Shown: piece by piece, positions 3,091 to 25,313 of the stretch
Numbering within the stretch: position 1 is the stretch's first letter
Layout: each line of letters starts with the position of its first letter
NCBI RefSeq assembly: GCF_000189295.2
Contig: NC_016803.1
Location: forward strand, 1,500,001-1,532,000
Reading direction: 5' to 3'
Source: Pseudodesulfovibrio mercurii
GTDB taxonomy: Bacteria; Desulfobacterota; Desulfovibrionia; Desulfovibrionales; Desulfovibrionaceae
DNA length: 32,000 bases
The notes under the pieces: generated by a model
The model's input: the letters and a program-made list of their open reading frames with translations, nothing else
Told to the model about the DNA's origin: nothing
The model's database searches: none
Made by a program: the position numbers and the translations under genes

Positions 3091-3103
3091 CCAGGGGGAA
3101 ATC

Positions 3104-4693
3104 ATGAGCATCCGCATCGAAAACGCCCGCATCATCGACGGCACCGGCTCCCCGGCCATGCCGGGCGGCGTGCGCGTCGAGGACGGGGTCATCACCCACG
3201 TGGGCCCGAACCCGCCCGAGGCGGACCAAACCATCGACGCCCAGGGGCGCGTGGTCTGCCCCGGCTTCATCGACACCCACTCCCACTCCGACCTGGTGGT
3301 CATGGAAAACCCGTTCATCTGGCCCAAGATCCGCCAGGGCGTGACCACGGAAATCCTCGGCCAGGACGGCATCTCCATGGCCCCCCTGCCCATCCGGCAC
3401 ATCCCGGCCTGGCGCAAGAACCTGAGCGGCCTGGAGGGCGAGTCCGACACCCTGGACTGGACCTGGGAGACCACCGACGGCTACCTCGCGCGCCTGGAAG
3501 GAACCGGCGTGGGCGCCAACGTCGGCTACCTGGCCCCCCACGGCAACGTGCGCATGGAGGCCATGGGCCTGGACGGCCGCCCGGCCGGGCTCGGCGACCT
3601 GACCGTGCTCAAGGCCGTGCTCCGCCGCGAACTCGAGGCCGGGGCCTTCGGCCTGTCCACCGGGCTCATCTACCCGCCCTGCACCTACGCGGACCAGGCC
3701 GAAATGGAGGCCCTCTGCTCGGTGGCCGCCGAGTTCGACCGCCCCCTGGTCATCCACCAGCGCTCCGAGGCGGATACCATCCTCGAATCCATGGCCGAGG
3801 TGCTCGACATCGCCCGGCACACCGGGGTGCACGTGCACTTCTCCCACTTCAAGATCTGCGGCAAGTACAACGCCGACAAGCTCGACCGCGTCCTCGGCCT
3901 GCTCGACCAGGCCGCCGACGAGGGCCTCAAGGTGACCATCGACCAGTACCCCTACGTGGCGGGCTCGACCATGCTCGGGGCCATCCTACCCCCCTGGGCC
4001 CACGCGGGCGGCACGGACAAGCTCCTGGAACGGCTGGCCGACGAGAAATCCCGCACCCGCATGCTCCGCGACATCCGCGACGGCATCCTCGGCTGGGACA
4101 ACTTCGTGGCCTTCGCGGGCGTGGACGGCATCTTCGTCACCAGCGTGCGCACCCCGGCCAACGAAGACGCCATCGGCAAGACCCTGGTCCAGCTCGGCGA
4201 AATGCGCGGCAAGCCGCCCCTCGTGGCCGCCCTCGACCTCCTGCTCCAGGAGGAGAACGCCGTCGGCATGGTCGACTTCTACGGCCTCGAGGAACACGTC
4301 AAGACGTTCATGGCCAGACCGGAAATGAACGTCTGCACCGACGGCCTGCTCGGCGGCACGCCCCACCCGCGCACCTACGGGGCCTTCCCCCGCGTGCTCG
4401 GCAAATACGTGCGCGAGGAACAGGTCATGCCGCTGGAAACCGCGGTCCGCAAGATGACCGGCAAGCCCGCCGAGACCTTCCACATCGACAAGCGCGGCCT
4501 GCTCAAACCCGGCTACCACGCCGACATCGTCCTGTTCGACCCGGACACCGTGCGCGACAAGGGCACCTACACCGAACCGCGCCAACACCCCACCGGCATC
4601 GACCTGGTCATGATCAACGGCACCGTAGTCCACGGACCCGACACCCCGGCCACCTCCACTCCCTCCGGCCGCGTGCTCAGGTTGGGCAGATAA
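3104..4693 (+). CDS. D-aminoacylase / N-acyl-D-amino-acid deacylase (amidohydrolase superfamily)
   Basis: N-terminus MSIRIENARIIDGTG...VEDGVI..VG....IDAQGRVVCPGFIDTHSHSD, the classic D-aminoacylase start. The start was moved from 2984 to the ATG at 3104, which is preceded by AGGGGGAA and sits just after the YgeY stop. Confidence 0.8.
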   Translation: MSIRIENARIIDGTGSPAMPGGVRVEDGVITHVGPNPPEADQTIDAQGRVVCPGFIDTHSHSDLVVMENPFIWPKIRQGVTTEILGQDGISMAPLPIRHIPAWRKNLSGLEGESDTLDWTWETTDGYLARLEGTGVGANVGYLAPHGNVRMEAMGLDGRPAGLGDLTVLKAVLRRELEAGAFGLSTGLIYPPCTYADQAEMEALCSVAAEFDRPLVIHQRSEADTILESMAEVLDIARHTGVHVHFSHFKICGKYNADKLDRVLGLLDQAADEGLKVTIDQYPYVAGSTMLGAILPPWAHAGGTDKLLERLADEKSRTRMLRDIRDGILGWDNFVAFAGVDGIFVTSVRTPANEDAIGKTLVQLGEMRGKPPLVAALDLLLQEENAVGMVDFYGLEEHVKTFMARPEMNVCTDGLLGGTPHPRTYGAFPRVLGKYVREEQVMPLETAVRKMTGKPAETFHIDKRGLLKPGYHADIVLFDPDTVRDKGTYTEPRQHPTGIDLVMINGTVVHGPDTPATSTPSGRVLRLGR

Positions 4694-7259: not shown

Positions 7260-7589
7260 CTAGCACTTGGACGGCGCCAGGGCGGGCTCGGCGTCCGGGT
7301 CGTAGATCACGTCGCCGTCGTCGGTCACCTGCGGGTTGAGCTCCTCCATGAAGTCCTGGGTCATGCCCGGGACCTTGAGCATGTCCTCGGCGGACTTGAA
7401 GGGACCGTTGGCCTTGCGGTAGTCCACGATGGCCTTGGCCAGCTCCTCGGGGATGTCGATGTCCTCGATGGCCATGAGTTCCTGGACCGAGGCCTTGTTG
7501 AAGCTGACGACGCCGTCCTGGGCAAAGGCGGCGGCCGCGAAGAACAGGCAGGCGGCGGCCAGGGTGATGGAGAGGATGATCTTCTGCAT
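7260..7589 (-). CDS. Small exported ComEA-like helix-hairpin-helix protein (paralog 1), C-terminus ...APSKC
   Basis: Signal peptide MQKIILSITLAAACLFFAAAAFA, then the SFNKASVQELMAI..I..ELAKAIVDYR..NGPF....DMLKVPGM pattern of ComEA-type HhH domains. The start was reset to the ATG at 7589, preceded by AAGGA. Confidence 0.7.
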   Translation of the reverse strand: MQKIILSITLAAACLFFAAAAFAQDGVVSFNKASVQELMAIEDIDIPEELAKAIVDYRKANGPFKSAEDMLKVPGMTQDFMEELNPQVTDDGDVIYDPDAEPALAPSKC

Positions 7590-7670
7590 GTCGTTGTCCT
7601 TGTATGCGTTTTGGGAGCGGGCGAGGCGGTCCGGAGGTTGGGCCGCCCCGCCCATGGGGTTTGGTATCGG

Positions 7671-9110
7671 TTAGCCCGCCTTGATCCGGAAGGTGGTGTT
7701 GTCCGGAGGCGTGACCTTGATTTCCGTGGGCTTCTTGAGCTGCGGCACGTAGTCGTAGGGCACGCGGTAGGCGCGGTAGACCAGGTTGTACTTGCCGTTC
7801 TGGGTGTAGTACGGGCTGATGTATTCCCAGACGATCTCGTGGTCCGGGGTGACTTCCTGGAACTGTCCGACGGCGCCGTTGGTGATCAGCGTGTTGCCGT
7901 TGGGCAGCCGCTGGGCCGAGGACACGTAGTCGGAGTAGAACTGGTACTTGTTGCGCATGCCCATCTGCTTGGCCGAGTGCTCCCAGACCATCTTCAGGGT
8001 GCGCGGGTCGAACTCGATGACGCGGGAGTAGTCGCGGCGGGCGTCGGACCAGCCCACGGGCGCGCCGGGGTTGCGCTTGCCGTAGCCAGCGTAGCCGCCG
8101 TTGTCATAGATCAGGATGTTGCCCTCGCCCGGCAGACCCTTGGGGATCATGTGGGTGTGGTGCTGGCCGATGATCTGTTCGAGCTTGGACAGGGCGCGCT
8201 TGTACTCCTTGCCGCCGAAGGTCCACATGGAATCGCCGTAGAACTCGGGGCCCACCTGCCAGACGACCTTCTTCGTCGCCTTGTCGATGATGAAGCTGGT
8301 GTTGGTCTGGCGGCAGGAGATGATGATGTTGTCCGGGTTGAAGACCGCGTACTTCTCCTTGTCCTCGTCCCACCACTTGTTGGGGCCGAGATAGGAGGCG
8401 GCGTTGACGTGAATCCAGTCGCCGCCCTTGCGGCCCGGAGTGCGGGTCATGGAGAAGGTCGGATACTTGTACATGGTCTTCTTGAAGTCCAGGGGGAAGT
8501 CCATCTCGTCGAAGTGCTCGGAGGCGAGCCAGTCCCAGATGATCTTGCCGTCGGCGTCCACCTCGGCGATGTAGTCGTCGTAGAGTTCCTTGTCGGAGAT
8601 GAACTGGTTGTGGACGAACTTGTGGGACAGGATGAGCATCTTGCCCTTGTAGTTGGCCACCGGCATGCCCGGGACGTGGTAGCCCACGGGGTTGCCCTCG
8701 AACTGGTAGTCGTGGTGCATGCCCGCGCGGGGAATGCTGCGGACCACCTTGTCGTTCCAGTCCACGACCACCAGGTCGGTGGAGTCCGGGTCGTCCCAGA
8801 CGCGGCCCTTCTTGTCCGGGGCCGGGCGCTTGGAGCCCGCCAGGTAGCCGCCCTTGAGCATTTTGGGCGGATGTTCGGCCTGGCAGATGTCCTTCCACTG
8901 CCTGACCACGTTGCCGTTCATATCGATGAGCACGGTGCCCTCGGATTCCACTTCGGTGCCGAAGACCGTGTAGCCGCCCCAGCACTTCTCGGGCTTGTAG
9001 ATGGTCGTACCGTGGGGGAAGACCGTGGGGAAGGACAAGGCCTTCAGGGGATTGACCAGCGTTGCCGCGGTTGCCACGGCTGCACCGGTAAGGAATTCAC
9101 GTCTCTTCAT
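7671..9110 (-). CDS. Arylsulfotransferase (ASST)-family beta-propeller protein, Tat-exported (paralog 2)
   Basis: Twin-arginine signal MKRREFLTGAAVATAA. Recurrent propeller motifs (LPNGNTLITNG, IDMNGNVV, GNILIYDNG) are typical of ASST-family proteins. RBS AAGGAGA. Confidence 0.7.
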   Translation of the reverse strand: MKRREFLTGAAVATAATLVNPLKALSFPTVFPHGTTIYKPEKCWGGYTVFGTEVESEGTVLIDMNGNVVRQWKDICQAEHPPKMLKGGYLAGSKRPAPDKKGRVWDDPDSTDLVVVDWNDKVVRSIPRAGMHHDYQFEGNPVGYHVPGMPVANYKGKMLILSHKFVHNQFISDKELYDDYIAEVDADGKIIWDWLASEHFDEMDFPLDFKKTMYKYPTFSMTRTPGRKGGDWIHVNAASYLGPNKWWDEDKEKYAVFNPDNIIISCRQTNTSFIIDKATKKVVWQVGPEFYGDSMWTFGGKEYKRALSKLEQIIGQHHTHMIPKGLPGEGNILIYDNGGYAGYGKRNPGAPVGWSDARRDYSRVIEFDPRTLKMVWEHSAKQMGMRNKYQFYSDYVSSAQRLPNGNTLITNGAVGQFQEVTPDHEIVWEYISPYYTQNGKYNLVYRAYRVPYDYVPQLKKPTEIKVTPPDNTTFRIKAG

Positions 9111-9166
9111 TATGTACTTTCTCCTTTGTCGCTCGCTTCGTGCGACGCGGATTGAAGTCTGTTGAT

Positions 9167-9190
9167 CCGGGACCGGCCCTCCGGTCCCGG
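9167..9190 (-). promoter_or_regulatory. Perfect 10-bp intercistronic hairpin between the two ASST genes (possible attenuator or mRNA stabiliser)
   Basis: CCGGGACCGG-CCCT-CCGGTCCCGG lies 14 nt downstream of the ASST-1 stop and 57 nt upstream of the ASST-2 start. Confidence 0.35.
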
Positions 9191-9204
9191 GCTGGATGCA
9201 CTCT

Positions 9205-10701
9205 CTAGTAGGCGTTCATGGTCGGACCGTCGCTGCCGTCGTCCTCCGCCGGGGCCTTGGCCGGAGCCTTGGCCGCAGCGGCCGGAGCCGCCGCCGGAGC
9301 ACCGAAACCGGCGCCCTCGTGGTAGTCGCGGAAGAAACGCGGCGCGTCGTCGCCCGCGATGTAGCCCTGCGGGGTCAGGGTCTTGCCGTAGAAGGCCGGG
9401 TAGTCCTCGCCGTAGCGGTAGGCCCGGTGCACCATGTTGGCCATGCCGTCGATGTGGGCCTCGAAGGGCAGACCGTCGATGTTGTGGAACACGGCCTTGG
9501 CCTTGCCAGCGGAGATCGGGTTGACGAATTCCCAGACCAGCCGACCCTCGGGGTTGACCTCGAAGATGTGGCCGCCGTGGGTGGAGGTGATCAGGGTGTT
9601 GCCGTTCTTCAGCCGCTGCACCGCGCCCTGGCGGTGGGAGTTGAAGCTGTTGGTGTGCCGGGTCTTGAACTCCCAGACGATCTTGCCGGTCTTGGGATCG
9701 ACCTCGATGGCGCGGGACCGGCGGTCCTGGGGACGCTCGGAGCCGTTGTCGAAGACGAGCACATGGCCGTTCTTCAGCGGGGTGGCGCAGTGGTTGCCGA
9801 ACATCTGCTGGGAACCGTCATTCCAGTAGCTCGGCTTCTTGGCGGTGGGGTCCCAGGCCGAGGGGTTGCCCCAGCGGTACTCCATCTCGCCGGTCTTGTG
9901 GTTGATGAAGTAGAACTCGGACAGGTTGCGCGAGTTCAGGACCACGGTGTCGGTCTCGGGGATGTAGTTGACGGTGTTGAAGTGGGACCAGTCGTAGGTG
10001 GCGTACATCTCGCCCATGGGCATGGGCAGGGCGTAGTTGATGTCGAACTGCTTGGGCCCCGTGCCGATGTGATCCTTGATGTGCCATTCCCAGACGGTCT
10101 TGCCTTCGGGATTGACCTCGCGGACGAAATCCACCCAGAAACGGTCGTGGGGGATGCCCTTGGACATGACCGGCTTGGTCGGGATGGTCAGGGGATTGCG
10201 GCCCAGCTTGCGGGCCTCGTCATTGGTCAGGGTTTCCCAGCCCAGGATCATGGTGTTGCCGTTGGGCATGCGGCAGAAGGTGTGATGCTGGATTTCCTTG
10301 TTGGGGATGAACATCTTGTATTCCCATACCTTCTTGCCGTCCCAGTCGAACTCTTCCAGGATGCCGGCCGCGCCGCCGATGCCGCAGTAGCCGATTTCCT
10401 TCTTGTACGGCAGAACGCCGCCGCGCAGCAGGTGGCCGTTGGGCAGCAGCACGGAGTGCAGACCGGCGGTGTATTCACTCTGCCACGTGTGCACGATGTT
10501 GCCGCGCATGTCGATGAGATAGGTGGTCTTGCAGGCCACCGTGGGGTCGAACAGGGTGTATCCCTGATAGGCCATGGCCTGATTGTAGTACAGCACACCG
10601 GTGGGCCCGGTGATGGCCTCGTAGGCAAACGCCACCGAACTCAGGACCATCACGGAGATCCCGAACAGAAGCGCCATATGCCAGCGTTGCAGTTTGAGCA
10701 C
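9205..10701 (-). CDS. Arylsulfotransferase (ASST)-family beta-propeller protein with a Sec-type signal peptide and an Ala/Pro-rich C-terminal tail (paralog 1)
   Basis: Motifs LPNGHLLRGG, MPNGNTMILGW, LKNGHVLVFDNG and LKNGNTLITS. The likely start is the GTG at 10701, 5 nt after AAGGAGGA, giving VLKLQRWHMALLFGISVMVLSSVAFA. The tail is GAPAAAPAAAAKAPAKAPAEDDG. Confidence 0.7.
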   Translation of the reverse strand: MLKLQRWHMALLFGISVMVLSSVAFAYEAITGPTGVLYYNQAMAYQGYTLFDPTVACKTTYLIDMRGNIVHTWQSEYTAGLHSVLLPNGHLLRGGVLPYKKEIGYCGIGGAAGILEEFDWDGKKVWEYKMFIPNKEIQHHTFCRMPNGNTMILGWETLTNDEARKLGRNPLTIPTKPVMSKGIPHDRFWVDFVREVNPEGKTVWEWHIKDHIGTGPKQFDINYALPMPMGEMYATYDWSHFNTVNYIPETDTVVLNSRNLSEFYFINHKTGEMEYRWGNPSAWDPTAKKPSYWNDGSQQMFGNHCATPLKNGHVLVFDNGSERPQDRRSRAIEVDPKTGKIVWEFKTRHTNSFNSHRQGAVQRLKNGNTLITSTHGGHIFEVNPEGRLVWEFVNPISAGKAKAVFHNIDGLPFEAHIDGMANMVHRAYRYGEDYPAFYGKTLTPQGYIAGDDAPRFFRDYHEGAGFGAPAAAPAAAAKAPAKAPAEDDGSDGPTMNAY

Positions 10702-10845
10702 TCTTTCCTCCTTACCTGTTACAAATACTGTTGTTGCCACACGAGCCTCCCGCCCGACCCTGCACCGGCCGCGCTCCCTTCCCGGTCACTCTGGCGGGGG
10801 AGGCGGCCGCCCGGCACGGGCCGCGCGGTTGGCAGCATGGACCAA

Positions 10846-11101: not shown

Positions 11102-12454
<1,353 letters not shown>

Positions 12455-12457
12455 GGC

Positions 12458-14401
12458 TCAGGCCTCCTCGTCGTGGACCGACGGAAATTCCAGGAACATG
12501 CAGGTGCCCCTTCCCGGCTCGGATTCGGCGAAAATCAGACCGTCGTGCCGCTCCACCATGCGGCGGGTGATGAACAACCCCAGGCCGAAGCCGCCCTTGC
12601 GCGACGAGAAGAACGGCTCGAAGATCTGCGTCAGGTTGTGCCGCTCGATGCCCGTGCCGTTGTCGCTGACCTCCAGGCGCACGGTCTCGTCCTCGCCCTC
12701 CCCGGCCCGGCAGGCGCGGATGAGGATGCGCTCGTCCTCGCCCGTCACGGCCAGGGAATTGAAGACCAGGTTCATGAGCACCTGTTGCAGGGCGCGGTCG
12801 TCGCCCCGGATGTACAGGGGCTCGTCGGGCAGGTCCACCTCCACCCGCTCCTGCTTGCGGCGGCTGCCGAGCAGGGACAGGGCGTCGCGGACCAGGGCGC
12901 CGATCTCCACGGTCTCCATGCTCATGGGCTTGGGCGTGGCCGCCTCGAGCAGCCCCTTGGTGATCTCGCCCGCGCGGATGGCGTTGCGCTGGATGGCCAA
13001 CAGGCCGTCCTTGACGTCCGGAACCAGCCCCTCCTCGAACATGAGGTCCTCGGCGTTGGCCTGGATGACGCCCAGGGGGTTGTTGATCTCGTGGGCCAGG
13101 GAGGCGGCCATCTTGCCGATGATGCCGAGGCGCTCGGACTGGATCAGCTCCTCCTCCATGCGGTTGCGCTCGGTCACGTTGCGGGCGAACAGACAGGCCA
13201 GGAGCTGGGTCCGGACCGGACCCTGAATGATCCGCCCGGCCACCTCCACCTCCATGGGGTGGCCCGCGCTCTCGACCATCTGGAACTCGAACTTGTCGCA
13301 GCCGTCGTTGAAGACCTTCTTCAGAAAGGCGTCGATCTCGTCGGCGTATTCGCGGGTGACCAACTGGCGCAGGTTGACCTCGTTCACGGGTCCGGGGAAG
13401 CGCAGGGAGTCGCGGGCGCGCTCGTTGGCGTGGAGCACGCTGCCCTCCTCGTTGACCAGAAAAATCATGTCCGGCGAAGATTCGATGAGGTCTCGGTAAC
13501 GCTGCTCGGTGCGGCGCAGGTCCTGGGTCACCCGGTCCACGCGCCGCTTGAGGGAGACGTTCCAGACCACGATGGCGACGAAGATGACCCCGGCCACGCC
13601 CGAGCCCACGGCCACGTACTTGGCGTAGTGGCGGAGGTCGTCGGTGATGGTCGGCTTGCCGAACCACTTGTCGCGCAGCTGGGCGGCCATGCCGCTCTCC
13701 CGCAGGTGGCGGAAGGCCTCCCGGATATCCTCGGCCAGCGCGGGCCGGCTCCGGGGCACGATGATGCCCAGGGGGCTCTCGCCGAGAACCACGCCCTTCT
13801 TGAGGATGTTCGGGATCTGGTAGCGGTCGATGAGGTCGTCGGCCACGCGCTCGGACGGGGCCACGAACACGTCCATGACCCCCTGGCTGACCATGTTCAG
13901 GGCCTCCATGGGCGAACTCAGCCAGACCACGTCCTCGGGCAGGTTGATCTCGGCGCTGTAGGGCGCGGAGGTGATGGCCACGACCTTCTTGCTGGCGAGG
14001 TCGCGCAGGCAGGTCACCGAGCGGCAGCTCTCGTTGACGTAGAGGTGGTGGCGCAGGCTGATGCCCACGGGAATCCAGATGGCGTCCAGTTCGTCGGCGG
14101 TCTCCTGCGAGTCGTGGGCCAGGATGTCCACCGAGCCGTTCAGGAAAAGCTCCCGCCGCTTGCCCAGGTCGTGGATGGGCCGGAACTCCATGTCCGCGCC
14201 CATGATCCTGCCCAGCATGACCATCTCGTCCACGGAGTAGCCGCGCACGCCCTGCTTGCCCTCCTTGACGGCCAGGAAGGAGAACGGCGGGGACAGGGCC
14301 CGCGTGCCCACGTGGTAAACCGGCCGCGCCAGGGCCCGCCCATGCGCCAGGACCGGGAGGAACCCGAGGCAGAGGATGAGGATAAGGACGGCGCGGCGCA
14401 T
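12458..14401 (-). CDS. Sensor histidine kinase with a periplasmic solute-binding (SBP family 3-like) domain, TM, PAS, HisKA and HATPase
   Basis: Signal/TM MRRAVLILILCLGFLPVLA, then an amino-acid-binding-protein-like domain of about 230 aa, a TM helix, PAS (YRDLIESSPDMIFLVNEEG), H-box SLAHEINNPL and N/G boxes (NLVFNS, DNGTGI, GFGLGL). The stop TGA is 3 nt before the regulator ATG, with GAGGAGG present. The start was reset to the ATG at 14401. Confidence 0.85.
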   Translation of the reverse strand: MRRAVLILILCLGFLPVLAHGRALARPVYHVGTRALSPPFSFLAVKEGKQGVRGYSVDEMVMLGRIMGADMEFRPIHDLGKRRELFLNGSVDILAHDSQETADELDAIWIPVGISLRHHLYVNESCRSVTCLRDLASKKVVAITSAPYSAEINLPEDVVWLSSPMEALNMVSQGVMDVFVAPSERVADDLIDRYQIPNILKKGVVLGESPLGIIVPRSRPALAEDIREAFRHLRESGMAAQLRDKWFGKPTITDDLRHYAKYVAVGSGVAGVIFVAIVVWNVSLKRRVDRVTQDLRRTEQRYRDLIESSPDMIFLVNEEGSVLHANERARDSLRFPGPVNEVNLRQLVTREYADEIDAFLKKVFNDGCDKFEFQMVESAGHPMEVEVAGRIIQGPVRTQLLACLFARNVTERNRMEEELIQSERLGIIGKMAASLAHEINNPLGVIQANAEDLMFEEGLVPDVKDGLLAIQRNAIRAGEITKGLLEAATPKPMSMETVEIGALVRDALSLLGSRRKQERVEVDLPDEPLYIRGDDRALQQVLMNLVFNSLAVTGEDERILIRACRAGEGEDETVRLEVSDNGTGIERHNLTQIFEPFFSSRKGGFGLGLFITRRMVERHDGLIFAESEPGRGTCMFLEFPSVHDEEA

Positions 14402-14554
14402 GATCGCCAGCCTAGCGCAAAGCGGGCCGTCGCGCCACCGCCGAAGCGGCGGGGCCGAAAAACGCCGACGTCCCCCGGCAGGAGGGATGCCGGGGGAGTA
14501 CGGTGAGAGGAGGTGGACAATGCGTCGGTTCAACGCTTTTCTCCGGGAACGTCG

Positions 14555-15250
14555 TTATGGCACGGCGCCGATGAGGACCGCCTTGTAGCCCTTGCCGATA
14601 TCGTTGCGGGCGTCCGAGTGGACCAGGATCATGTCCAGGAACCGGCCCGGTTCGAGCCCGTCCAGGGTCAGGGCGATGGCCGCCGACTGCCCGGCGGGCA
14701 CGGTCAGTTCGCCCTGCCAGTACGTCTTCCTGAACTTCTGCGACTCGACCTTCGTGACCAGCATGGGGGCGTCGCCCGCGTTGCGCACGGTCAGTGTCAC
14801 GGCATTGGCCTTGCCCGCCGCCAGGGTCCCCAGGTCCACCTTGCGCGGGTTGACCTCCATGACCCCCATGGGCACGGGTTCGACGTAGCCCACGATGTGG
14901 ATGACCTGGGCGTCCTCCTTGCCCTTGCCGGTGAACACGGTGACGGTTTTGTCGAACTTGCCTGGATATTTGAACGTGTTGTAGTTGATGATCATTTCCG
15001 TGGCTTCGCCGGGTTCGAGGCTGCTCTTCCCGAGAGCAGTGCTGGTGCAGCTTCAGGACGTGGTCACGTTCTCGATGGTCAGCGCCCGGTCGCCCGTATT
15101 GGTCAGGGTGATCGTCTGGCGGGCCACCGGCCCCTCGGTCATGGCCCCGAAGTCCACGGTGGTCTGGCTGACGGACAGGGGTCCGGCCCAGGCTCCGGCC
15201 GCCAGGCAGGCGACCAGGGCGCAGGCCAGGGCAATGGATCTGAAACGCAT
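14555..15250 (-). CDS. Exported DUF1573-family protein with in-frame UGA (15053-15055) read as selenocysteine; 231 aa, motif TS-U-S-C-T
   Basis: ORFs 15053..15250 and 14555..14995 share a frame. Only the TGA and 19 sense codons lie between them. Read-through restores a complete DUF1573 domain with the TGA at the first Cys of the conserved SCGCT motif. A SECIS-like hairpin follows. RBS AAGGAG precedes the ATG at 15250, and the signal peptide is MRFRSIALACALVACLAAGAWA. Confidence 0.7.
15021..15039 (-). other. Putative bacterial SECIS hairpin
   Basis: On the mRNA: UGA, 13 nt, then CUGCUCU-CGGGA-AGAGCAG (7-bp stem, 5-nt loop containing G). The loop starts 20 nt after the UGA, inside the 16-37 nt range I recall for bacterial SECIS elements. 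Confidence 0.5.
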
Positions 15251-15260
15251 TGTCGGCTCC

Positions 15261-15722
15261 TTATTGTTCCCCGTGCACGAAACGGGATTTGACCTTGTAG
15301 TCGAAGTTCTTGTCCTGGCCCTCGGTGTGGCAAGTGCGGCACAGGGCCTCGTCGGGCCTGGCGACGATGTCGGCCGGGTCCTGCGACGCCACGTGCTTCC
15401 GGCCGGGGCCGTGGCAGTTCTCGCACTGCACGTCCTTGAGTTCCGGGGTCAGGTCCATGTCGATGAACCCGCCGTCCGCGTCCATGGCCACCACGTGGCA
15501 GCGCACGCAGCCGGGCACCGACTGCTTCTCCTCGCCCTGCTGCTTCAAATCCTCGAAGGCGTTGGCGTGGGGGGTGGTCTTCCATCCCTTGACCACGTCG
15601 GCGTGGCACTCCTCGCAGGCGGTGTAGCCCACGTAGTCGCCGAACAGTTCGGCATGGGCCGCGGCCGCCGCCAGGGAGAGGAGGAAGCAGGCGACGGCCA
15701 CGATCAGCAGAAGGCGGTTCAT
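15261..15722 (-). CDS. Periplasmic tetrahaem c-type cytochrome
   Basis: Signal peptide plus four CxxCH motifs (CEECH, CVRCH, CENCH, CRTCH) in 153 aa. The stop lies 10 nt before the DUF1573 start. Confidence 0.88.
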   Translation of the reverse strand: MNRLLLIVAVACFLLSLAAAAAHAELFGDYVGYTACEECHADVVKGWKTTPHANAFEDLKQQGEEKQSVPGCVRCHVVAMDADGGFIDMDLTPELKDVQCENCHGPGRKHVASQDPADIVARPDEALCRTCHTEGQDKNFDYKVKSRFVHGEQ

Positions 15723-15735
15723 GGCGTTCTCCCGG

Positions 15736-16032
15736 CTAGCAGTTGCAGTCCGATGCGGGCTCTATGTAGATGACCTTCTCGAGCTTCCTGAGCAGGGCGT
15801 TGTCCACGCCGTCGATGTCGAGCAGCTCGGACATGTCCACGAACTCCCCGTTCTCCGTGCGGGCCTTGACGATCTCCTCGGCCAGTTCGTGGCTGATGCC
15901 GTCGATGGCCTCCAGCTGTTCCACGGTGGCCACGTTGAGGTTGAGCTTGCCGCTGTTGTCCGCGGCGAAGGATGCCTGCGCGGACAGGGCCAGGGCCAGG
16001 ACGAACGCCAGGATGAGGCAGATCTTTTTCAT
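15736..16032 (-). CDS. Small exported ComEA-like helix-hairpin-helix protein (paralog 2), C-terminus ...SDCNC
   Basis: Signal peptide MKKICLILAFVLALALSAQA, then LNLNVATVEQLEAIDGISHELAEEIVKAR..NGEF....ELLDIDGV. RBS AAGGAG. Confidence 0.7.
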   Translation of the reverse strand: MKKICLILAFVLALALSAQASFAADNSGKLNLNVATVEQLEAIDGISHELAEEIVKARTENGEFVDMSELLDIDGVDNALLRKLEKVIYIEPASDCNC

Positions 16033-16051: not shown

Positions 16052-16255
16052 TTACCAGCCGAGATAGTGATGGCTGTACATGAAGAACCAGGCCACGCAG
16101 GAGAGGACTCCGCTGGCGATGCCGGAAACGGTTTTGCGGAAGGTCGAGGCCGTGTCGCGGCCCGCCTTGAACACGCCCAGGTACAAGGCCGCCGTGGTCA
16201 GCAGGACCAGCAGGACCGCGAACAGGGGCAGGATGACGTAGTAGATGCCGTGCAT
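16052..16255 (-). CDS. 67-aa two-TM membrane protein of unknown function
   Basis: Two hydrophobic helices (YYVILPLFAVLLVLLTTAALYLGV; IASGVLSCVAWFFMY). AGGAGGAG lies 3 nt upstream and the gene is tightly packed in the operon. Confidence 0.5.
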   Translation of the reverse strand: MHGIYYVILPLFAVLLVLLTTAALYLGVFKAGRDTASTFRKTVSGIASGVLSCVAWFFMYSHHYLGW

Positions 16256-16264
16256 GATCTCCTC

Positions 16265-16417
16265 CTAGAGCAGGCCCAGGTACTGGCTGACGGTGACGAC
16301 GGCCATGACTGCCAGGGCGAAGACGATGCCCAGGGTGTCCCTGTCCTGTTCCTCCACGCCCTGGTTGGCCATGAAGTCGAAGCCGGTTTCGTCGGTGGTG
16401 TGCGGATGTCTGTTCAT
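16265..16417 (-). CDS. 50-aa single-TM protein, absent from the supplied ORF track
   Basis: Hand translation gives MNRHPHTTDETGFDFMANQGVEEQDRDTLGIVFALAVMAVVTVSQYLGLL. TAGGAGGA lies 3-4 nt upstream of the ATG at 16417. The ORF fills an otherwise empty gap in the operon. Confidence 0.45.
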   Translation of the reverse strand: MNRHPHTTDETGFDFMANQGVEEQDRDTLGIVFALAVMAVVTVSQYLGLL

Positions 16418-16427
16418 GTCAATCCTC

Positions 16428-17588
16428 CTAGGCCGCGAACAGGCCGGTCTTGACGCAGATGACGAGGGCCGCGAGGAGCAGGGCGATGCGCAGGAGCCCG
16501 GCGGCCAGGGTGACCAGGACCCCCTTGAGGCCGTGCTGCGTGATCTCGCGGAAGGACACGGACAGGCCGAGCGCGGCCGCGGCCAGGGAGAAGTCCCACT
16601 TGACCATGGCGAAGATGGCGTGGTGGGCGGGCTCCTTGAACAGGTGCAGGCAGGCCAGGGCCCACAGGAAGACGAACACGCCGAGCCACAGCGGGAAGGT
16701 CTTGATGCCGCGCGTGGCCATGACCGTCTCGTCGTCGCGGCGGCGCAGCTTGCGCACGAACATGACGATGAAGACGTACAGGAAGCCCGCGGGCATGATG
16801 ACGTGGCGGCCCACGTCGAACCAGGTGGCCCAGCGGCCCGCCTCGTAGCTCGACCCGAAGGCCGCGAACAGGGCCTGGGCCCCGTTGCCCACGCCGACCA
16901 CCGAGGCCAGGCCCAGGGCCTGCGGGGTCAGTCCGACCCACTCCCCGAGCACGGGCAGCAGGTACATGGAGACCAGCCCGAAGCCGATGACGCAGGCCGT
17001 TGCGTGGACCACCTGGCCGCCCTTGGCCTTGATCAGCGGCATGAGGATGGCGCAGGCGTGGGGGTCGCCCGTGGCCAGGCCGCCCGCGATGATGGACCCG
17101 TGGCGGTCGTCGAGCCTGAACAGCTTCGCAATCCACAGGGTCAGGGTCGCGGTCAGGAACAGGGAGGCCGTGCAGATCAGGATCGGGGCAGCGCCGAGCT
17201 TTAAGGCGTGGCCGAGCATAAAGTGCGGGGCGAGCATGATGATGCCCAGCGGCATGAGCATGTGGATGTAGGACAGGCCGCGTTTCCAGGAGTCCGGCAC
17301 GCCGAAGACGTTGCCGATGATCAGGCCGACGAGCAGCGGGTTCCAGACGAAGTTGGAGTTCAGGACCTGGAAGAGGGACTGGTGGTGCACCGGACCGATG
17401 ACCCCGTCCAGCCAGGCGAACAGGTTTTGCAGGGTGAACGGGTTGGGCACCCCGGCCAGGTTGTTGCTGAAGATGGCGATGAAGAACATCGCCAGCAGTC
17501 CGGGCAGGACCGCCTTCAGGTCATACAGTGCGCTGAACCAGGATTTGCGGCCCAGCTCGTAGTGTATTGCCATGCTTTGGGTATTCAT
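16428..17588 (-). CDS. Polytopic inner-membrane transporter (about 10-11 TM), possibly a distant YeiH/UPF0324 (putative sulfate exporter) family member
   Basis: 386 aa and hydrophobic throughout. The LLVGLIIGNVFG...LMPLGIIMLA layout resembles YeiH, but the GxxSICG region is not conserved (GGLATGDPHACAIL). RBS GAGGAAAA. Confidence 0.5.
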   Translation of the reverse strand: MNTQSMAIHYELGRKSWFSALYDLKAVLPGLLAMFFIAIFSNNLAGVPNPFTLQNLFAWLDGVIGPVHHQSLFQVLNSNFVWNPLLVGLIIGNVFGVPDSWKRGLSYIHMLMPLGIIMLAPHFMLGHALKLGAAPILICTASLFLTATLTLWIAKLFRLDDRHGSIIAGGLATGDPHACAILMPLIKAKGGQVVHATACVIGFGLVSMYLLPVLGEWVGLTPQALGLASVVGVGNGAQALFAAFGSSYEAGRWATWFDVGRHVIMPAGFLYVFIVMFVRKLRRRDDETVMATRGIKTFPLWLGVFVFLWALACLHLFKEPAHHAIFAMVKWDFSLAAAALGLSVSFREITQHGLKGVLVTLAAGLLRIALLLAALVICVKTGLFAA

Positions 17589-17615: not shown

Positions 17616-20522
17616 CTAGCGGCGGATGTGGGCGGAACCGCCGGTGTTGACCGAGCCGCTGACCTTTTCGCTCGGGGCCTTGGAGCCCACGCGCCAGTGG
17701 TCCATGAAGCCCAGGCGCGGGAGCATGGACAGCCTCAGGAAGCCCTCGATGGTCCCGTTGACCCCGACCAGCACGTCCACGTTGTTGCGCGGGCGGAAGG
17801 CCAGGTTGTCGGTCTTCTCGACCTCGTCCCCGGACCCGGTCTCGATGTGCCAGGCCATGACCATCTCGCCGTCGAAGCTGTCCAGGACCAGACGGAACAG
17901 AGGCTCGCCCTTCTCATTCTTCGGCCCCTCGTACACGGGGTGCTCACGGTCCAGGACAATGGCCTCGGGGTTGTCGAGCAGGACCTCGTTGAGCTGGTAG
18001 CAGTGGCCGCACACGTCCGGGCGGACCATGAAGCGCGGGTCGAACTCGAACGGCGTGTCGCGCTCCAGCTCCTGGATGCCGGTATACAGCCAGAGGTTGG
18101 CCCTGCCGTCCTTGAACGGGGTCTCCAGGTCCATCTCGGCCAGGACCGAGCCGACCTTGAACTGCATCATCCGGGCGGTGTCCTGGTGCTGGGGCAGGAG
18201 CTTGCGGGTCTCGGCGTTGAGCGGGCCCACGGTCTTTTCGGCGACCACCTTGCCCGCCTTGTCCAGCAGGGACAGACCGATGGTCCCGGCCTGTTCGTCC
18301 AGGCCGTCGCAGCGCAGCACGTATCCGCCGAGCTTGGCCGTGTCGCCCGCGCCCAGGGCCTTTTCGCCGGGCTTCCTGTAGGTGTAGCTGATGCTCTGCA
18401 GGGAAGGGGTGCCGAACTCCCTGATCTTGACGTAGTTGGAGCCGATGTACTCGGGCTGGATGTAGGTCGCGCCCTCGGAGAAGAGGTCGGGCATGAAGTA
18501 GCGGTCATGGGCCGACTTGTCCTCGCTGAACCCCTGGGCCAGGTAGAAGTGCGCGCCCCAGCGGTTGCCGGAGTACTTCATCAGCGAGAGCGAGGCCACG
18601 GGCCGGTCGTCCAGGTAGGACATGCCGGTGTAGCGCAGCGCCTTGTTGCGCACGCCGAGCAGCTCGTCCTGCCAGTACATCAGGTTGCCGTCGCCCATGG
18701 GCTGGTTCTTCCAGAAGTCCAGGTCAAAGTCCTTGCGCACGTAGGTCCCGGAGGAGAACGTGGTCAGGTAGGCCCGCCTGCCGAGCAGGAAGAAGCTTTC
18801 GCCCGCCAGGGTGCGGATGTTGCGCGCGTTGCGCGAGGTGTAGCACAGCCCGGCCGGGGGAATGACCACGCGGTTGTTGCGGTAGTCCACGTAGGACCCG
18901 CGGACCACGATGGCCTCGGCGGACAGGAGCCGCTCGCCCTTGCGGTTGCGCGAGACCTTGCGCATGAGCCCCTTGAGCCGGGGCACGAAGGGCGCGGTGT
19001 GGTCGGGCTCGTAGAACGAGGCGTCGGGGATGACCTTGGGATAGGAGGTGAACCTGGACTCCTCGACCACGGTGCCGTAGGACGAATCCGCCAGCCGGGT
19101 CAGGAAGGAGCGTTCGATGATCGGTTCGAGCACGGGCGAGGAGCCGAGGAAGAAGTCGAGGTTGTTCTTCCCTTCCCCGGGCCACATGACCATGTTGTCC
19201 GTGCGCATGAAGTAGTAGTCGCGGACGTAGAGGTCGCGGACCACGCCCCCGTCCAGGCCGCCCGCGACCACCTTGAAGGCCGGGCGGTTCCAGACGTCCG
19301 AGTACTTGACCGGGCCGTCGAAGGCGTCGTGGTCCTTGTCGAAGACCACGGGCTGGTTGTTTTCGAGCAGCAGACGGTGGAGCATGCCGGTCTTGAGGTT
19401 GGGCTCCAGGACCACGTTGTAGCGCTTGTCCAGGGGCCAGGGCTGACCGTTCTTGACCGTGACCAGGTCGCGGTAGACGACGAAGGAGAAGTTGCCCGAG
19501 GAGTAGCCGTGGGCCTTGCCCGTGGACCAGGGCACGAAGTCCGAGTCCTTGAGGAAGGCCGGGTCGATGACGATCTCCACGCGCATGTCCAGCTCCGGCA
19601 CGGTCAGCTGGTACTTGTCCAGTTCGGCCGGGCGGGTCTTGTACTCCTGGGCCGTGGTCGGCTTGACCAGCTTCTCGGCCAGGACCTCGCTGCCGGTGAA
19701 GTTGGTGATCCGGACCAGGAAGCCGTCGGGCCGCCGGAAGGCGTAGATGCGCTTGTTGAAATAGTAGCGATAGTCCTCCTGGCGCACCTCGAGGATGACC
19801 GGGCGCTGCATGGAGAAGGTCGCCTCGGTGATCTCCGGGAACTCGATGGACGCGAACTCGGCGGTGTCGAAGTCCACGTCGCGGGCCACGTACTTGCTGG
19901 CCCCGAAGTAGTAGGTGTTGTCCAGGTAGAACTTTTCGAGCTGCGGGTTGAGCCCTTCCTGCAGATGGATGTCCCGGACCTCCTCGCGCCTGGGGAAGCG
20001 CGTGGCGATGGGAAATTCCAGGGGGAAGCCGCCGGACGGCGAGATGACCGCGAACTCGGCGTAGGGCACGTCGTAGTGGTCCGTGGAATAGTCGAACCAC
20101 AGCCGGTAGCCGGAGTCGCCCAGGGGCGTGCGGTCGCCCTTGTTCAGGGCCACGTCGCGGTAGGTCCGCGTGGCGGTCTTGAGGTCCACCAGGTAGGTGT
20201 GCTCGCCCAGGACCAGGAACGGGTCGCGCAGGAGCGGCCGGGCGTCGTGGGAGGTCTCGGACAGGTAGAACAGCCCGCCGGCCGGGACCGTGGCCGCGCC
20301 GTCGGCGATCTCGCTGCCGCGCAGGACGATGGCCTCGGTCAGGCTCTTTTTCTGTCCGAGCTGGTTCTTGTAGACCTTGTTGCGCAACCCCGCCAGGTGC
20401 GGCAGGAAGGTCATGTCCGCCGACGGCGACAGGCCGTGCGGATCGGTTGCGGCCGCCCCCGCGCCCGGCAGGGCGAGGAGCAGGACCAGGGCAAGGGCCA
20501 GTAGTCTGAATGTGTGTTGCAT
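17616..20522 (-). CDS. 968-aa exported protein made of two homologous modules of about 470 aa each; no family recognised
   Basis: Signal peptide MQHTFRLLALALVLLLALPGAGAAA. Residues 39-112 align with 512-586 (F.P.L.GL..KV..N..G....AIV.RGS....PAGL.Y.S....F.LG...YL). The module ends also align (MVMW..NLDFFLG against MVMAW..NVDVLVG). A single CGHC motif lies at 18000-18011. Confidence 0.85.
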   Translation of the reverse strand: MQHTFRLLALALVLLLALPGAGAAATDPHGLSPSADMTFLPHLAGLRNKVYKNQLGQKKSLTEAIVLRGSEIADGAATVPAGGLFYLSETSHDARPLLRDPFLVLGEHTYLVDLKTATRTYRDVALNKGDRTPLGDSGYRLWFDYSTDHYDVPYAEFAVISPSGGFPLEFPIATRFPRREEVRDIHLQEGLNPQLEKFYLDNTYYFGASKYVARDVDFDTAEFASIEFPEITEATFSMQRPVILEVRQEDYRYYFNKRIYAFRRPDGFLVRITNFTGSEVLAEKLVKPTTAQEYKTRPAELDKYQLTVPELDMRVEIVIDPAFLKDSDFVPWSTGKAHGYSSGNFSFVVYRDLVTVKNGQPWPLDKRYNVVLEPNLKTGMLHRLLLENNQPVVFDKDHDAFDGPVKYSDVWNRPAFKVVAGGLDGGVVRDLYVRDYYFMRTDNMVMWPGEGKNNLDFFLGSSPVLEPIIERSFLTRLADSSYGTVVEESRFTSYPKVIPDASFYEPDHTAPFVPRLKGLMRKVSRNRKGERLLSAEAIVVRGSYVDYRNNRVVIPPAGLCYTSRNARNIRTLAGESFFLLGRRAYLTTFSSGTYVRKDFDLDFWKNQPMGDGNLMYWQDELLGVRNKALRYTGMSYLDDRPVASLSLMKYSGNRWGAHFYLAQGFSEDKSAHDRYFMPDLFSEGATYIQPEYIGSNYVKIREFGTPSLQSISYTYRKPGEKALGAGDTAKLGGYVLRCDGLDEQAGTIGLSLLDKAGKVVAEKTVGPLNAETRKLLPQHQDTARMMQFKVGSVLAEMDLETPFKDGRANLWLYTGIQELERDTPFEFDPRFMVRPDVCGHCYQLNEVLLDNPEAIVLDREHPVYEGPKNEKGEPLFRLVLDSFDGEMVMAWHIETGSGDEVEKTDNLAFRPRNNVDVLVGVNGTIEGFLRLSMLPRLGFMDHWRVGSKAPSEKVSGSVNTGGSAHIRR

Positions 20523-20581: not shown

Positions 20582-20596
20582 ACAAGAAGCGTACCA
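20582..20596 (-). promoter_or_regulatory. Weak sigma-54-like element upstream of the 968-aa gene
   Basis: The minus strand reads TGGTAC-GCTTC-TTGT. Spacing is correct but -12 is GT instead of GC. It lies 60-75 nt upstream of the ATG at 20522 and 76-93 bp downstream of the 18-bp palindrome. Confidence 0.2.
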
Positions 20597-24453: not shown

Positions 24454-24474
24454 GTCAACTCTCCCTTGGTACGG

Positions 24475-25272
24475 TTACCAGCAAATGAGGATGGGGCTGG
24501 AGACCAGGCCCAGGACCTCGGTCAGGGGCGACTTGCGGTTGGACCTGCGGTCCATGTGGGCCACGATCATGCCGTAGTCGCCCAGGCTGCGGGCCGCGGT
24601 CTCGGGCGCGCCCAGCAGGGTGAAGGCGCGGGCCGGGGCGTGGCCGAGCTTGCCGAGGAGCTCCCGGCCCTCGGCCAGGAGCTCGTCCGGGTGCGGGTCC
24701 CGGTGCAGGTCGTCCATGGCGTAGGCGCACAGGTCGAAATCCACGGCCCGGGAGCCGAACAGGTGATGGAAGCGGCCCGCCAGGGAGTCCACGTCGGTCT
24801 TCTCGTCCAGGAGCAGGACCAGCCGGTCGGACTGGATCATGTTGCGCACCAGCAGGACCGGGCAGGGCATCTGGCGGTAGAGCTTGGAGCGCAGCCGCTT
24901 GCGGAAGGCCCCGGTGTTGAAGTTGGCCACCTCCCCTTCCACGAAGAAGTCGTAGCCGCCCAGGCGCAGCTCCTCGAGCAGGGTGTCCTCGCGGTCGCCC
25001 ACGCGGACGATGGGGTTGGGCAGGATGAAGCAGTCGAGCTTCTCGCTGTTCAGGATGCGCTGCACCTCCTCAAGCCCGGCCTGACGCAGGCCCGACTCCC
25101 AGGAGCGGCGTATCCAGCCGGTCTCCGACGAGTGCGGCTTGTGGTCCGGCTCCTCCACGTGGACGGGCTGCACGGCGATGCCGAGCAGTTCCGCCTTCCG
25201 GCACAGGTATCGCAGGGCCACATTGGACGCCAACGTCATTTCCACGGGGACAAGGGCTTTCAGCATGTCCAT
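24475..25272 (-). CDS. Divergent tandem USP-like (adenine-nucleotide alpha-hydrolase fold) protein
   Basis: MDMLKALVPVEMTLASNVALRYLCRKA..., CPVLLVRN and a second half with LVLLLDEKTD...SSPILICW. The start was reset to the ATG at 25272 (GAGGTG upstream). The upstream part of the listed ORF overlaps the REC gene out of frame. Confidence 0.6.
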   Translation of the reverse strand: MDMLKALVPVEMTLASNVALRYLCRKAELLGIAVQPVHVEEPDHKPHSSETGWIRRSWESGLRQAGLEEVQRILNSEKLDCFILPNPIVRVGDREDTLLEELRLGGYDFFVEGEVANFNTGAFRKRLRSKLYRQMPCPVLLVRNMIQSDRLVLLLDEKTDVDSLAGRFHHLFGSRAVDFDLCAYAMDDLHRDPHPDELLAEGRELLGKLGHAPARAFTLLGAPETAARSLGDYGMIVAHMDRRSNRKSPLTEVLGLVSSPILICW

Positions 25273-25313
25273 GGGCGCACCTCGCTTGTTGTCTGGTTCA
25301 TGGATTCCCTCCC

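Follow-up and report, generated by a model that had tools for sequence, protein, structure and literature searches.

A DUF1573 selenoprotein carrying a U-G-C motif, U being selenocysteine (Sec), is listed in the prokaryotic selenoproteome reviews of 2022 and 2026 (PMC9312934, PMC13188914), both of which cite the study of Olavius symbionts by Zhang & Gladyshev (2007, NAR 35:4952, PMC1976440), where the DUF1573 family figures among the new 'OS_HP' families; the NCBIfam model NF041425 is named 'OS_HP2 family (seleno)protein'. The Deltaproteobacteria are the most selenoprotein-rich bacteria, 10 of the 11 examined having been found rich in selenoproteins (PMC1794560). We have analyzed a stretch of 32,000 nucleotides from Pseudodesulfovibrio mercurii (contig NC_016803.1, positions 1,500,001 to 1,532,000; hereafter the window), in which the minus-strand region 15250..14555 is, very probably, one intact gene for a Sec-containing DUF1573 protein, its UGA codon 66 being predicted from sequence to be decoded as Sec. 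The gene stands at the end of a cassette of seven genes, directly downstream of a tetrahaem cytochrome c gene; our literature search found no description of the function of DUF1573 or of this cassette. The novelty is modest, as Sec-containing DUF1573 proteins have been catalogued since 2007, and it lies in a mis-annotated subfamily with the motif U-S/A-C.

A single reading frame crosses the TGA codon

All positions below are those of the window, and all features lie on its minus strand unless stated otherwise. The region 15250..14555 forms a single frame of 231 codons, Sec66 included, closed by a TAA stop (14557..14555), and the sole internal stop is the TGA at 15055..15053. The two open reading frames (ORFs) into which this TGA divides the region, of 65 amino acids (15250..15053) and 146 amino acids (14995..14555), are thus in the same frame, with 19 sense codons (15052..14996) between the TGA and the ATG of the second. 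Indeed, the Cys-containing homolog P0001 aligns collinearly across the TGA over residues 1–230 in a tblastn comparison, with 67% identity. With Cys placed at residue 66, the translated product matches the Pfam family PF07610 (DUF1573) with E=5.9e-30 and 103.6 bits, against a gathering threshold of 26.1, and residues 26–121 correspond to model positions 2–96 of 98, that is, a single domain crosses the TGA. The TGA (15053..15055) is followed by the TGC codon 68 (15047..15049), which encodes the partner Cys of the U-x-C motif; this Cys68 is invariant in an alignment of 43 sequences (A3), as are the flanking Ser65 and Thr69.

The start of the gene is well defined. A Shine-Dalgarno sequence, AAGGAG (15257..15262), stands 6 nucleotides (nt) ahead of the ATG at 15250 and overlaps the stop codon of the cytochrome gene, while ATG 14995 has no comparable Shine-Dalgarno sequence. 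A signal peptide for the general secretory pathway is predicted at residues 1–22 (15185..15250), with cleavage after A-W-A, judging by eye from the hydrophobic N-terminus and the AxA|G site, the latter being conserved among homologs; its removal would leave a mature product of around 209 residues. The original prediction, made from this DNA alone, had already placed the two ORFs in one frame, parted by a TGA and 19 sense codons, with a read-through product collinear with the DUF1573 core, no good Shine-Dalgarno sequence at the 146-residue ORF and a tetrahaem cytochrome gene ending 10 nt upstream, and all of this agrees with the translation, the PF07610 alignment and the coordinates given here. 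Since TGA ends 6 of the 25 genes in the window, the standard genetic code applies and an alternative code is ruled out. Sequencing error as the source of the TGA is likewise excluded; a contig from an independent Logan assembly (L029) is identical to the window.

As for the structure, the product is a predicted exported protein with two immunoglobulin-like (Ig-like) domains. The first is the DUF1573 domain (residues 26–121, 14888..15175), assigned from Pfam and a structure model, which carries U-S-C in an inter-strand turn. The second, an ASH/DUF1573-like domain (residues 136–214, 14609..14845), is assigned from a match to PF15780 (ASH, E=9.5e-11), the model and Foldseek. The model is an AlphaFold2 (AF2) prediction of P0020, a Cys-form member of the clade whose genomic counterpart (L004) retains the hairpin described below, and not of the window protein itself. 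It has a mean predicted local distance difference test score (pLDDT) of 92.3 and is all-β, with two Ig-like β-sandwiches, C-S-C falling in the turn that joins strands 58–65 and 70–74; its N-terminal helix is of low confidence. Foldseek searches with this model returned solely ASH, PapD-like and HYDIN-type Ig domains, plus 2qsv, a Porphyromonas gingivalis protein whose function is not known, and a sequence search of the PDB with the window protein gave no match. The NCBIfam choice-of-anchor D domain (NF012200) is matched in two stretches with 62.9 bits, above its cut-off of 45 bits, a domain-level label that is silent on function. A match to PCuAC, placed in domain 2, is insignificant (E=0.008, below cut-off). 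The protein thus has an Ig-like fold and CxC spacing, and not a thioredoxin fold with a CxxC or UxxC site; the fold being a generic one, it offers no catalytic precedent.

TGA and Cys codons alternate at one column

A protein search yielded about 45 full-length homologs (around 231 residues), all of which have T-S-C-[A/S/G]-C-T, with Cys in the column of the TGA, so that the TGA does take the place of the first CxC cysteine, as had been proposed. The same search gave about 20 truncated calls of 127–165 residues that begin just past this column, among them 'hypothetical protein SYK_13910' of Pseudodesulfovibrio nedwellii and a 159-residue 'DUF1573 domain-containing protein' of Pseudodesulfovibrio sp. 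JC047. Public annotation (GenBank, JGI, ENA) indeed presents the gene as pieces of 65/66 and 146 residues, or truncated, in at least 12 genomes and in many metagenomes, and the expectation that standard gene callers would split or truncate it is thus borne out for orthologs in public records.

At the DNA level we compared 28 genome loci, 33 metagenome loci and the contigs of several of the truncated calls, which gave 68 gene copies, including the window and the identical contig L029. The codon-66 column holds TGA in 39 copies and a Cys codon in the other 29 (TGT in 16, TGC in 13), TAA and TAG being found in none, and the reading frame is open on either side of the column in all 68. The TGA copies amount to 29 distinct sequences from several orders and at least two phyla. 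By record title they belong to Pseudodesulfovibrio (P. nedwellii and sp. JC047), Desulfovibrio sp. Fe33, Desulfoplanes and Desulfosarcina variabilis, and by label to metagenome-assembled genomes of Desulfobacteraceae, Desulfarculaceae, Syntrophaceae and Acidobacteriota. The 166–174 codons downstream of the TGA contain no frameshift and no further stop in any copy whose contig covers them.

A hairpin downstream of the UGA has the features of a bacterial SECIS

The original prediction had also described a 7-bp hairpin with a G-containing loop at 15021–15039, and it had asked for its conservation, for the state of the ortholog column and for the response of a model of the bacterial selenocysteine insertion sequence (SECIS). 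The hairpin CUGCUCU/CGGGA/AGAGCAG, whose stem pairs 15039..15033 with 15027..15021 round a loop at 15032..15028, begins 13 nt past the UGA and has a folding free energy of −8.7 kcal/mol. Published criteria for bacterial SECIS (bSECIS) elements comprise an apical loop of 3–9 nt, a stem of 4–16 bp, a G in the first two loop positions, a distance of 16–37 nt from UGA to loop and a minimum free energy of −7.5 kcal/mol or lower (PMC13188914). The window element, with a 5-nt loop, a 7-bp stem and 20 nt from UGA to loop, falls within all of these limits. Across the TGA forms the loop measures 3–5 nt, the stem 7–8 bp and the distance from UGA to loop 20–21 nt, relatives of the window gene having an 8-bp stem and a GGN loop; such a 7–8-bp hairpin, beginning 13 nt past the UGA and with GG in its loop, is present in each of the 29 distinct TGA forms.

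The case for this hairpin is a comparative one. In a gap-free alignment of the 29 distinct TGA forms (A2), columns 20–27 pair with columns 31–38 round the GGN loop, and 87.5% of the cells are paired, compared with 26–47% when the 3' arm is slid by 1–3 columns; the Cys forms are paired in only 42.9% of cells at the same columns. Double changes were counted in 36 cells against 13.9 expected, and covariation scored 0.418 where shuffled alignments gave 0.188; neither observed value was reached in any of 500 shuffles. Compensatory changes on both sides are seen at 6 of the 8 pairs, with switches at core pairs between U-A, C-G and G-C, between G-C and A-U, between C-G and U-A, and between G-C and U-A. 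The GG of the loop is present in 29/29 Sec forms and in 5/23 Cys forms.

In agreement, a covariance model (R1) trained only on the 19 TGA forms from outside the Desulfovibrionales found its best match in 477 kb of scanned sequence at 15016–15055 of the window, with 43.1 bits and E ~2e-12, the calibration being rough. This segment (15016..15055) corresponds to the full predicted Sec-decoding unit, namely the UGA, the 13-nt spacer and the hairpin, and the scan gave no second match in the window. The other held-out Sec forms score 33–43 bits and the Cys forms, which share the coding homology, 7–28 bits. The three checks therefore all came out in favor of Sec decoding. The alignment of 29 sequences and the covariance model would allow the automatic rescue of split genes.

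As the element lies within codons 72–78, it shapes the protein too: there it has the pattern [A/V/T]-L-G-[K/Q/E]-x-x in the Sec forms, as opposed to x-[L/M]-[D/S/E]-[K/R]-x-x in the majority of Cys forms. ARAGORN reported a 'tRNA-Gly (ccc)' at 14998–15065 on the plus strand, antisense to the UGA and hairpin, which we reject as a false positive, because the Rfam tRNA model has no match there at E<=10 and no tRNA is found at the equivalent sites of orthologs; the call was probably produced by the hairpin.

Evolution of the Sec and Cys forms

The relationship between the two forms was examined in a midpoint-rooted neighbor-joining tree of 54 distinct proteins which, having no support values, is indicative only. 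In this tree the Sec forms occupy several deep clades interleaved with Cys clades. Two Cys genes nested within Sec clades still carry the hairpin: that of locus L004 (TGC) has 8/8 pairs and the GG at 10198–10238, with 27.6 bits in the R1 scan, and that of L025 (TGT) has 5/8 pairs and the GG at 10123–10163. These are fossils of a recent replacement of Sec by Cys, and the presence of Cys genes with a hairpin inside Sec clades fits an ancestral Sec that was repeatedly replaced.

Both forms may also coexist, a Sec gene being followed in tandem by a Cys paralog in Desulfovibrio sp. Fe33 (L030, 9689–11217) and likewise in the metagenome contigs L034 and L035 (both ~3001–4530). The window has the Sec gene only, with no Cys paralog. 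In Pseudodesulfovibrio karagichevae (L001, 10001–10690), where the neighbors are 84–97% identical to those in the window, the Cys paralog (64% identity) stands alone. Each lineage has thus lost a different member of the tandem pair. The family is a clear-cut natural case of Sec repeatedly giving way to Cys, with a fossil SECIS (L004) and differential loss of paralogs.

Probable Sec decoding and the proposed role of the U-x-C motif

Taken together, these observations point to a mechanism whose decoding steps are those known for Sec in bacteria. Acting as a bacterial SECIS, the mRNA hairpin 13 nt past the UGA would bring SelB with its Sec-tRNA(Sec) to a ribosome that has paused at this codon. 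That Sec is actually inserted in this organism we hold to be highly probable, given its clade and the conservation of the site; a TGA-plus-SECIS unit under purifying selection is not maintainable without Sec machinery. Once exported, Sec66-Ser-Cys68 in the turn of domain 1 would be a redox-active selenol/thiol pair cycling through a selenylsulfide in the periplasm, with the tetrahaem cytochrome, translationally coupled just upstream, as its electron partner, and the protein would work within a seven-gene envelope cassette regulated by sigma-54. We know of no instance of Sec in a purely structural bond. The repeated exchange of Sec and Cys at one position, together with the unchanging Cys68, makes a redox-active pair the most likely reading, and alternation of this kind is an accepted indicator of catalytic redox cysteines (approach cited in PMC9312934). 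The most economical account would be a selenylsulfide that forms reversibly, with the neighboring cytochrome feeding it. Nevertheless, we give a redox function of U-x-C about an even chance, and the cytochrome as direct partner is put forward more tentatively. The view of the original prediction, that a Sec/Cys pair would mark the CxC motif of DUF1573 as redox-active, is in our opinion a reasonable inference.

Several observations weigh against this interpretation. None of selA, selB, selC and selD was found within the 32-kb window. The 66 nt after the TGA, in a sequence of 66% G+C, do not fold better than chance in the window alone (z=0.33, with 119/200 shuffles folding equally well), so that the significance of the hairpin comes entirely from the comparative data. 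Rfam gave no match in the region, either at gathering threshold or at E<=10, a weak objection that says little because Rfam returned no bacterial SECIS family here. The Foldseek results show a generic Ig-like sandwich with no similarity to known oxidoreductases, leaving a redox role without support from the fold, and a U-x-C that binds a metal or metalloid fits the sequence data equally well. Three further observations concern selenium use in general. Examination of 21 related loci revealed no tRNA-Sec. A scan filtered on G+C content at third codon positions (GC3) returned no other TGA-split ORF in the window, a weak negative since its threshold of 0.85 missed the DUF1573 gene too, whose GC3 just 3' of the TGA is 0.78. 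For one Pseudodesulfovibrio species the absence of a [NiFeSe] hydrogenase gene has been reported, an observation that has no bearing on selABCD.

Among the alternatives, the one that survives best accepts a genuine Sec protein and assigns to U-x-C the role of a ligand site for metals or metalloids, for example in the handling of Cu, Hg, As, Se or Te. The Cys pairs found elsewhere in the cassette, namely the C-terminal CNC of its HHH_3 protein and the CGHC of its 968-residue protein, would suit a hand-off, a YeiH-family transporter is encoded in the operon, and the published selenoprotein lists include MerT-like, cation ATPase, YHS domain and mercuric-reductase-like families (PMC9312934, PMC13188914). 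Yet no metal-binding domain was detected, the match to PCuAC being insignificant, and electron transfer is the role suggested by the close linkage with a tetrahaem cytochrome; we regard a ligand role as a serious alternative, but on balance unlikely.

Far less probable are the explanations that dispense with Sec altogether. Misreading of Sec-UGA codons can occur under selenium limitation, and in this respect the hairpin might only promote suppression of the UGA by a near-cognate tRNA, for Cys or Trp, in a selenium-free read-through. The hairpin nonetheless fits the specific bSECIS consensus, with GG in a small apical loop 20–21 nt from the UGA, the sole sense codons at the column are those of Cys, the chemical analog of Sec, and the host clade is rich in Sec users, all of which makes such a read-through very improbable.

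The original prediction had named pseudogenisation as its main alternative, in which a nonsense change from TGC to TGA truncated a Cys-type DUF1573 gene and left its 3' part unexpressed. This change requires one base, and close relatives do hold a Cys paralog (L001, and in tandem in L030 and L034). Clearly, this does not agree with a TGA at the identical column in 39 copies (29 distinct) of several orders, each with an intact downstream frame, nor with a hairpin that has been conserved along with the TGA but is lacking in most Cys forms. Moreover, over the 165 codons 3' of the TGA, ten TGA-form orthologs give ratios of nonsynonymous to synonymous substitution (dN/dS) of 0.07–0.33, with dS mostly above 1 and thus saturated, which indicates purifying selection through a long divergence and excludes a pseudogene; we attach next to no credence to decay. 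Equally hard to credit is the possibility of two genuine products, a 65-residue secreted peptide and a 146-residue cytoplasmic protein started at ATG 14995: this ATG exists, and the NCBI, JGI, ENA and Logan gene callers give exactly that split, but it would cut the DUF1573 domain (residues 26–121) and a confident β-sandwich, the 19 codons from TGA to ATG are conserved and in frame, the Met concerned is an internal conserved residue present in the Cys forms as well, and the 146-residue piece has neither a signal peptide nor a Shine-Dalgarno sequence such as that ahead of 15250.

The seven-gene cassette and its surroundings

The gene proposed here to encode a selenoprotein closes a cassette whose order is a 968-residue secreted protein, a YeiH-family protein, proteins of 50 and 67 residues, an HHH_3 protein, the tetrahaem cytochrome and the DUF1573 protein. 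In the window the intergenic gaps measure 9–27 nt. Order and strand are kept in almost every locus with enough flanking sequence, whether the last gene is of the Sec or of the Cys form, and the cassette ranges from the Desulfovibrionales to the Acidobacteriota.

The cytochrome gene (15261..15722) encodes 153 residues with four CxxCH motifs (PF13435, E=9.8e-19) and ends 10 nt before the DUF1573 start codon. A homolog lies 450–710 nt upstream of the motif in all loci but two short, cut contigs, beside Sec and Cys forms alike. It was also observed that the cytochrome matches positions 403–519 of the 519 in NF041198, 'UshA-like (seleno)protein', with E=2.4e-35 but far below the family cut-off; this C-terminal match suggests that its haem domain is elsewhere fused to a different selenoprotein.

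Upstream of the cytochrome, an exported, ComEA-like HHH_3 protein of 98 residues (15736..16032; PF12836, E=4e-16) ends in C-N-C. All of 31 distinct orthologs, drawn from several phyla, share this CNC immediately before the stop codon, and a role as thiol partner of the U-x-C protein is possible. The two small hydrophobic proteins of 67 and 50 residues (16052..16417), which gave no family matches, are taken as members from the conservation of order and strand across loci, and the YeiH-family membrane protein (16428..17588) from its match to PF03601 (E=2.5e-29) and synteny.

The first gene (17616..20522) encodes the 968-residue secreted protein, for which no Pfam, NCBIfam or PDB sequence match was found and whose more than 200 homologs are all annotated 'hypothetical'. 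Sequence comparison reveals an invariant C-G-H-C near its C-terminus, with C838, H840 and C841 unchanging. The protein is 63–69% identical between Pseudodesulfovibrio and Acidobacteriota, and the window protein has a 92% match in Desulfovibrio sp. Huiquan2017, which, like the neighbors shared with P. karagichevae, places the source of the window in the Pseudodesulfovibrio group. By eye, a segment of about 75 residues appears to be repeated (at residues ~35–115 and ~510–590). Its AF2 model (pLDDT 83) has as best fold match the Methanosarcina S-layer DUF1608 domain (3u2g, E=2.4e-6), which, the TM-scores being low, gives only a hint that this protein may be associated with the cell envelope.

As for regulation, a sigma-54-type −24/−12 element, TGGTACGCTTCTTGT (20596..20582), lies 74 nt upstream of the first ATG of the cassette. 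The same element is found at −73/−74 in six related loci (L001, L005, L031, L032, L067 and L068) and at −67 in L006, and it is also present in L030, where the start codon was set further downstream by our script; L015, L025 and L028 have variants of it at greater distances upstream. In the Pseudodesulfovibrio and Desulfoplanes loci the element thus keeps its position, and more distant loci have variants of it. As the count of sigma-54 consensus matches across the window is not above chance, the support for a promoter lies in this positional conservation. The element fits control by the sigma-54-dependent response regulator (11102..12454) which, together with an SBP_bac_3-PAS histidine kinase (12458..14533), forms a two-component system assigned from Pfam (11102..14533), 21 nt downstream of the DUF1573 gene; kinase and regulator adjoin this gene in the Desulfovibrionales loci. 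Past this system, at 7260–10740, are two genes for arylsulfotransferase-like (PF05935) β-propeller proteins and a second HHH_3 gene. Synteny of these genes holds among Pseudodesulfovibrio relatives, several distant genomes also have them close to the cassette, and they may act in the same system.

A more speculative proposal, which we consider doubtful at present, is that the cassette constitutes an undescribed envelope module for electron transfer or chalcogen handling, with the DUF1573 protein as its catalytic selenol/thiol component, reduced by the cytochrome. If true, this would define a new class of periplasmic redox protein without a thioredoxin fold and provide the first functional assignment for the DUF1573 CxC, present in thousands of uncharacterised proteins.

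Two observations concern other parts of the window. Between a Usp gene and a response-regulator gene, about 860 nt (24454–25313) hold no ORF with the high GC3 typical of genes in this genome. On the plus strand, the longest-ORF calls of an M20 peptidase (1897–3090) and an amidohydrolase (2984–4693) overlap by 107 nt at 2984–3090, and the true start of the amidohydrolase is probably further downstream than 2984.

Comparison with known selenoproteins and SECIS elements

The window protein matches NF041425 over its whole length, with 57.1 bits against a cut-off of 100 bits. Five diverse TGA-form relatives score 50.5–64.9, the Cys form P0001 scores 42.8 and SCGCT outgroups score 83–94. The motif in the window is U-S-C and that of the relatives U-S-C or U-A-C, never U-G-C. 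On the score and the motif we reject membership in OS_HP2; judged from sequence, the window protein represents a sister subfamily, with the same domain, Sec predicted at the same column and a U-S/A-C motif. As NF041425 does not capture this subfamily, the gene is still split in public records. More generally, the alternation of Sec and Cys flags the CxC of DUF1573, a large family of no known function, as chemically active, and the co-transcribed tetrahaem cytochrome offers a testable partner.

The closest described system, OS_HP2, shares with the window protein the PF07610 domain and Sec in place of the first Cys of CxC, as mapped through the SCGCT outgroups (alignment A1) and the published UGC motif; its hosts are likewise Deltaproteobacteria/Thermodesulfobacteriota, and its function is likewise not known. 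Unlike OS_HP2, the window subfamily has a fixed two-domain architecture of 231 residues and resides in a seven-gene cassette beside a tetrahaem cytochrome, an arrangement of which the sources consulted make no mention. With respect to the decoding signal, the consensus bacterial SECIS (bSECISearch model, PMC13188914) is, as in the window, a stem-loop in the coding region 3' of the UGA, with a small loop and GG in its first positions; the window element, a candidate SelB site, differs in being minimal, with one short helix and no lower stem or bulge detected. Finally, the exported thiol:disulfide oxidoreductase selenoproteins (DsbG-like, thiol:disulfide interchange and Trx-like; PMC1976440) resemble the window protein in being exported, in having Sec near a Cys and in having Cys homologs, whereas the window protein has an Ig-like β-sandwich and U-x-C rather than U-x-x-C, so that, with no catalytic homology between them, the likeness would be one of functional analogy.

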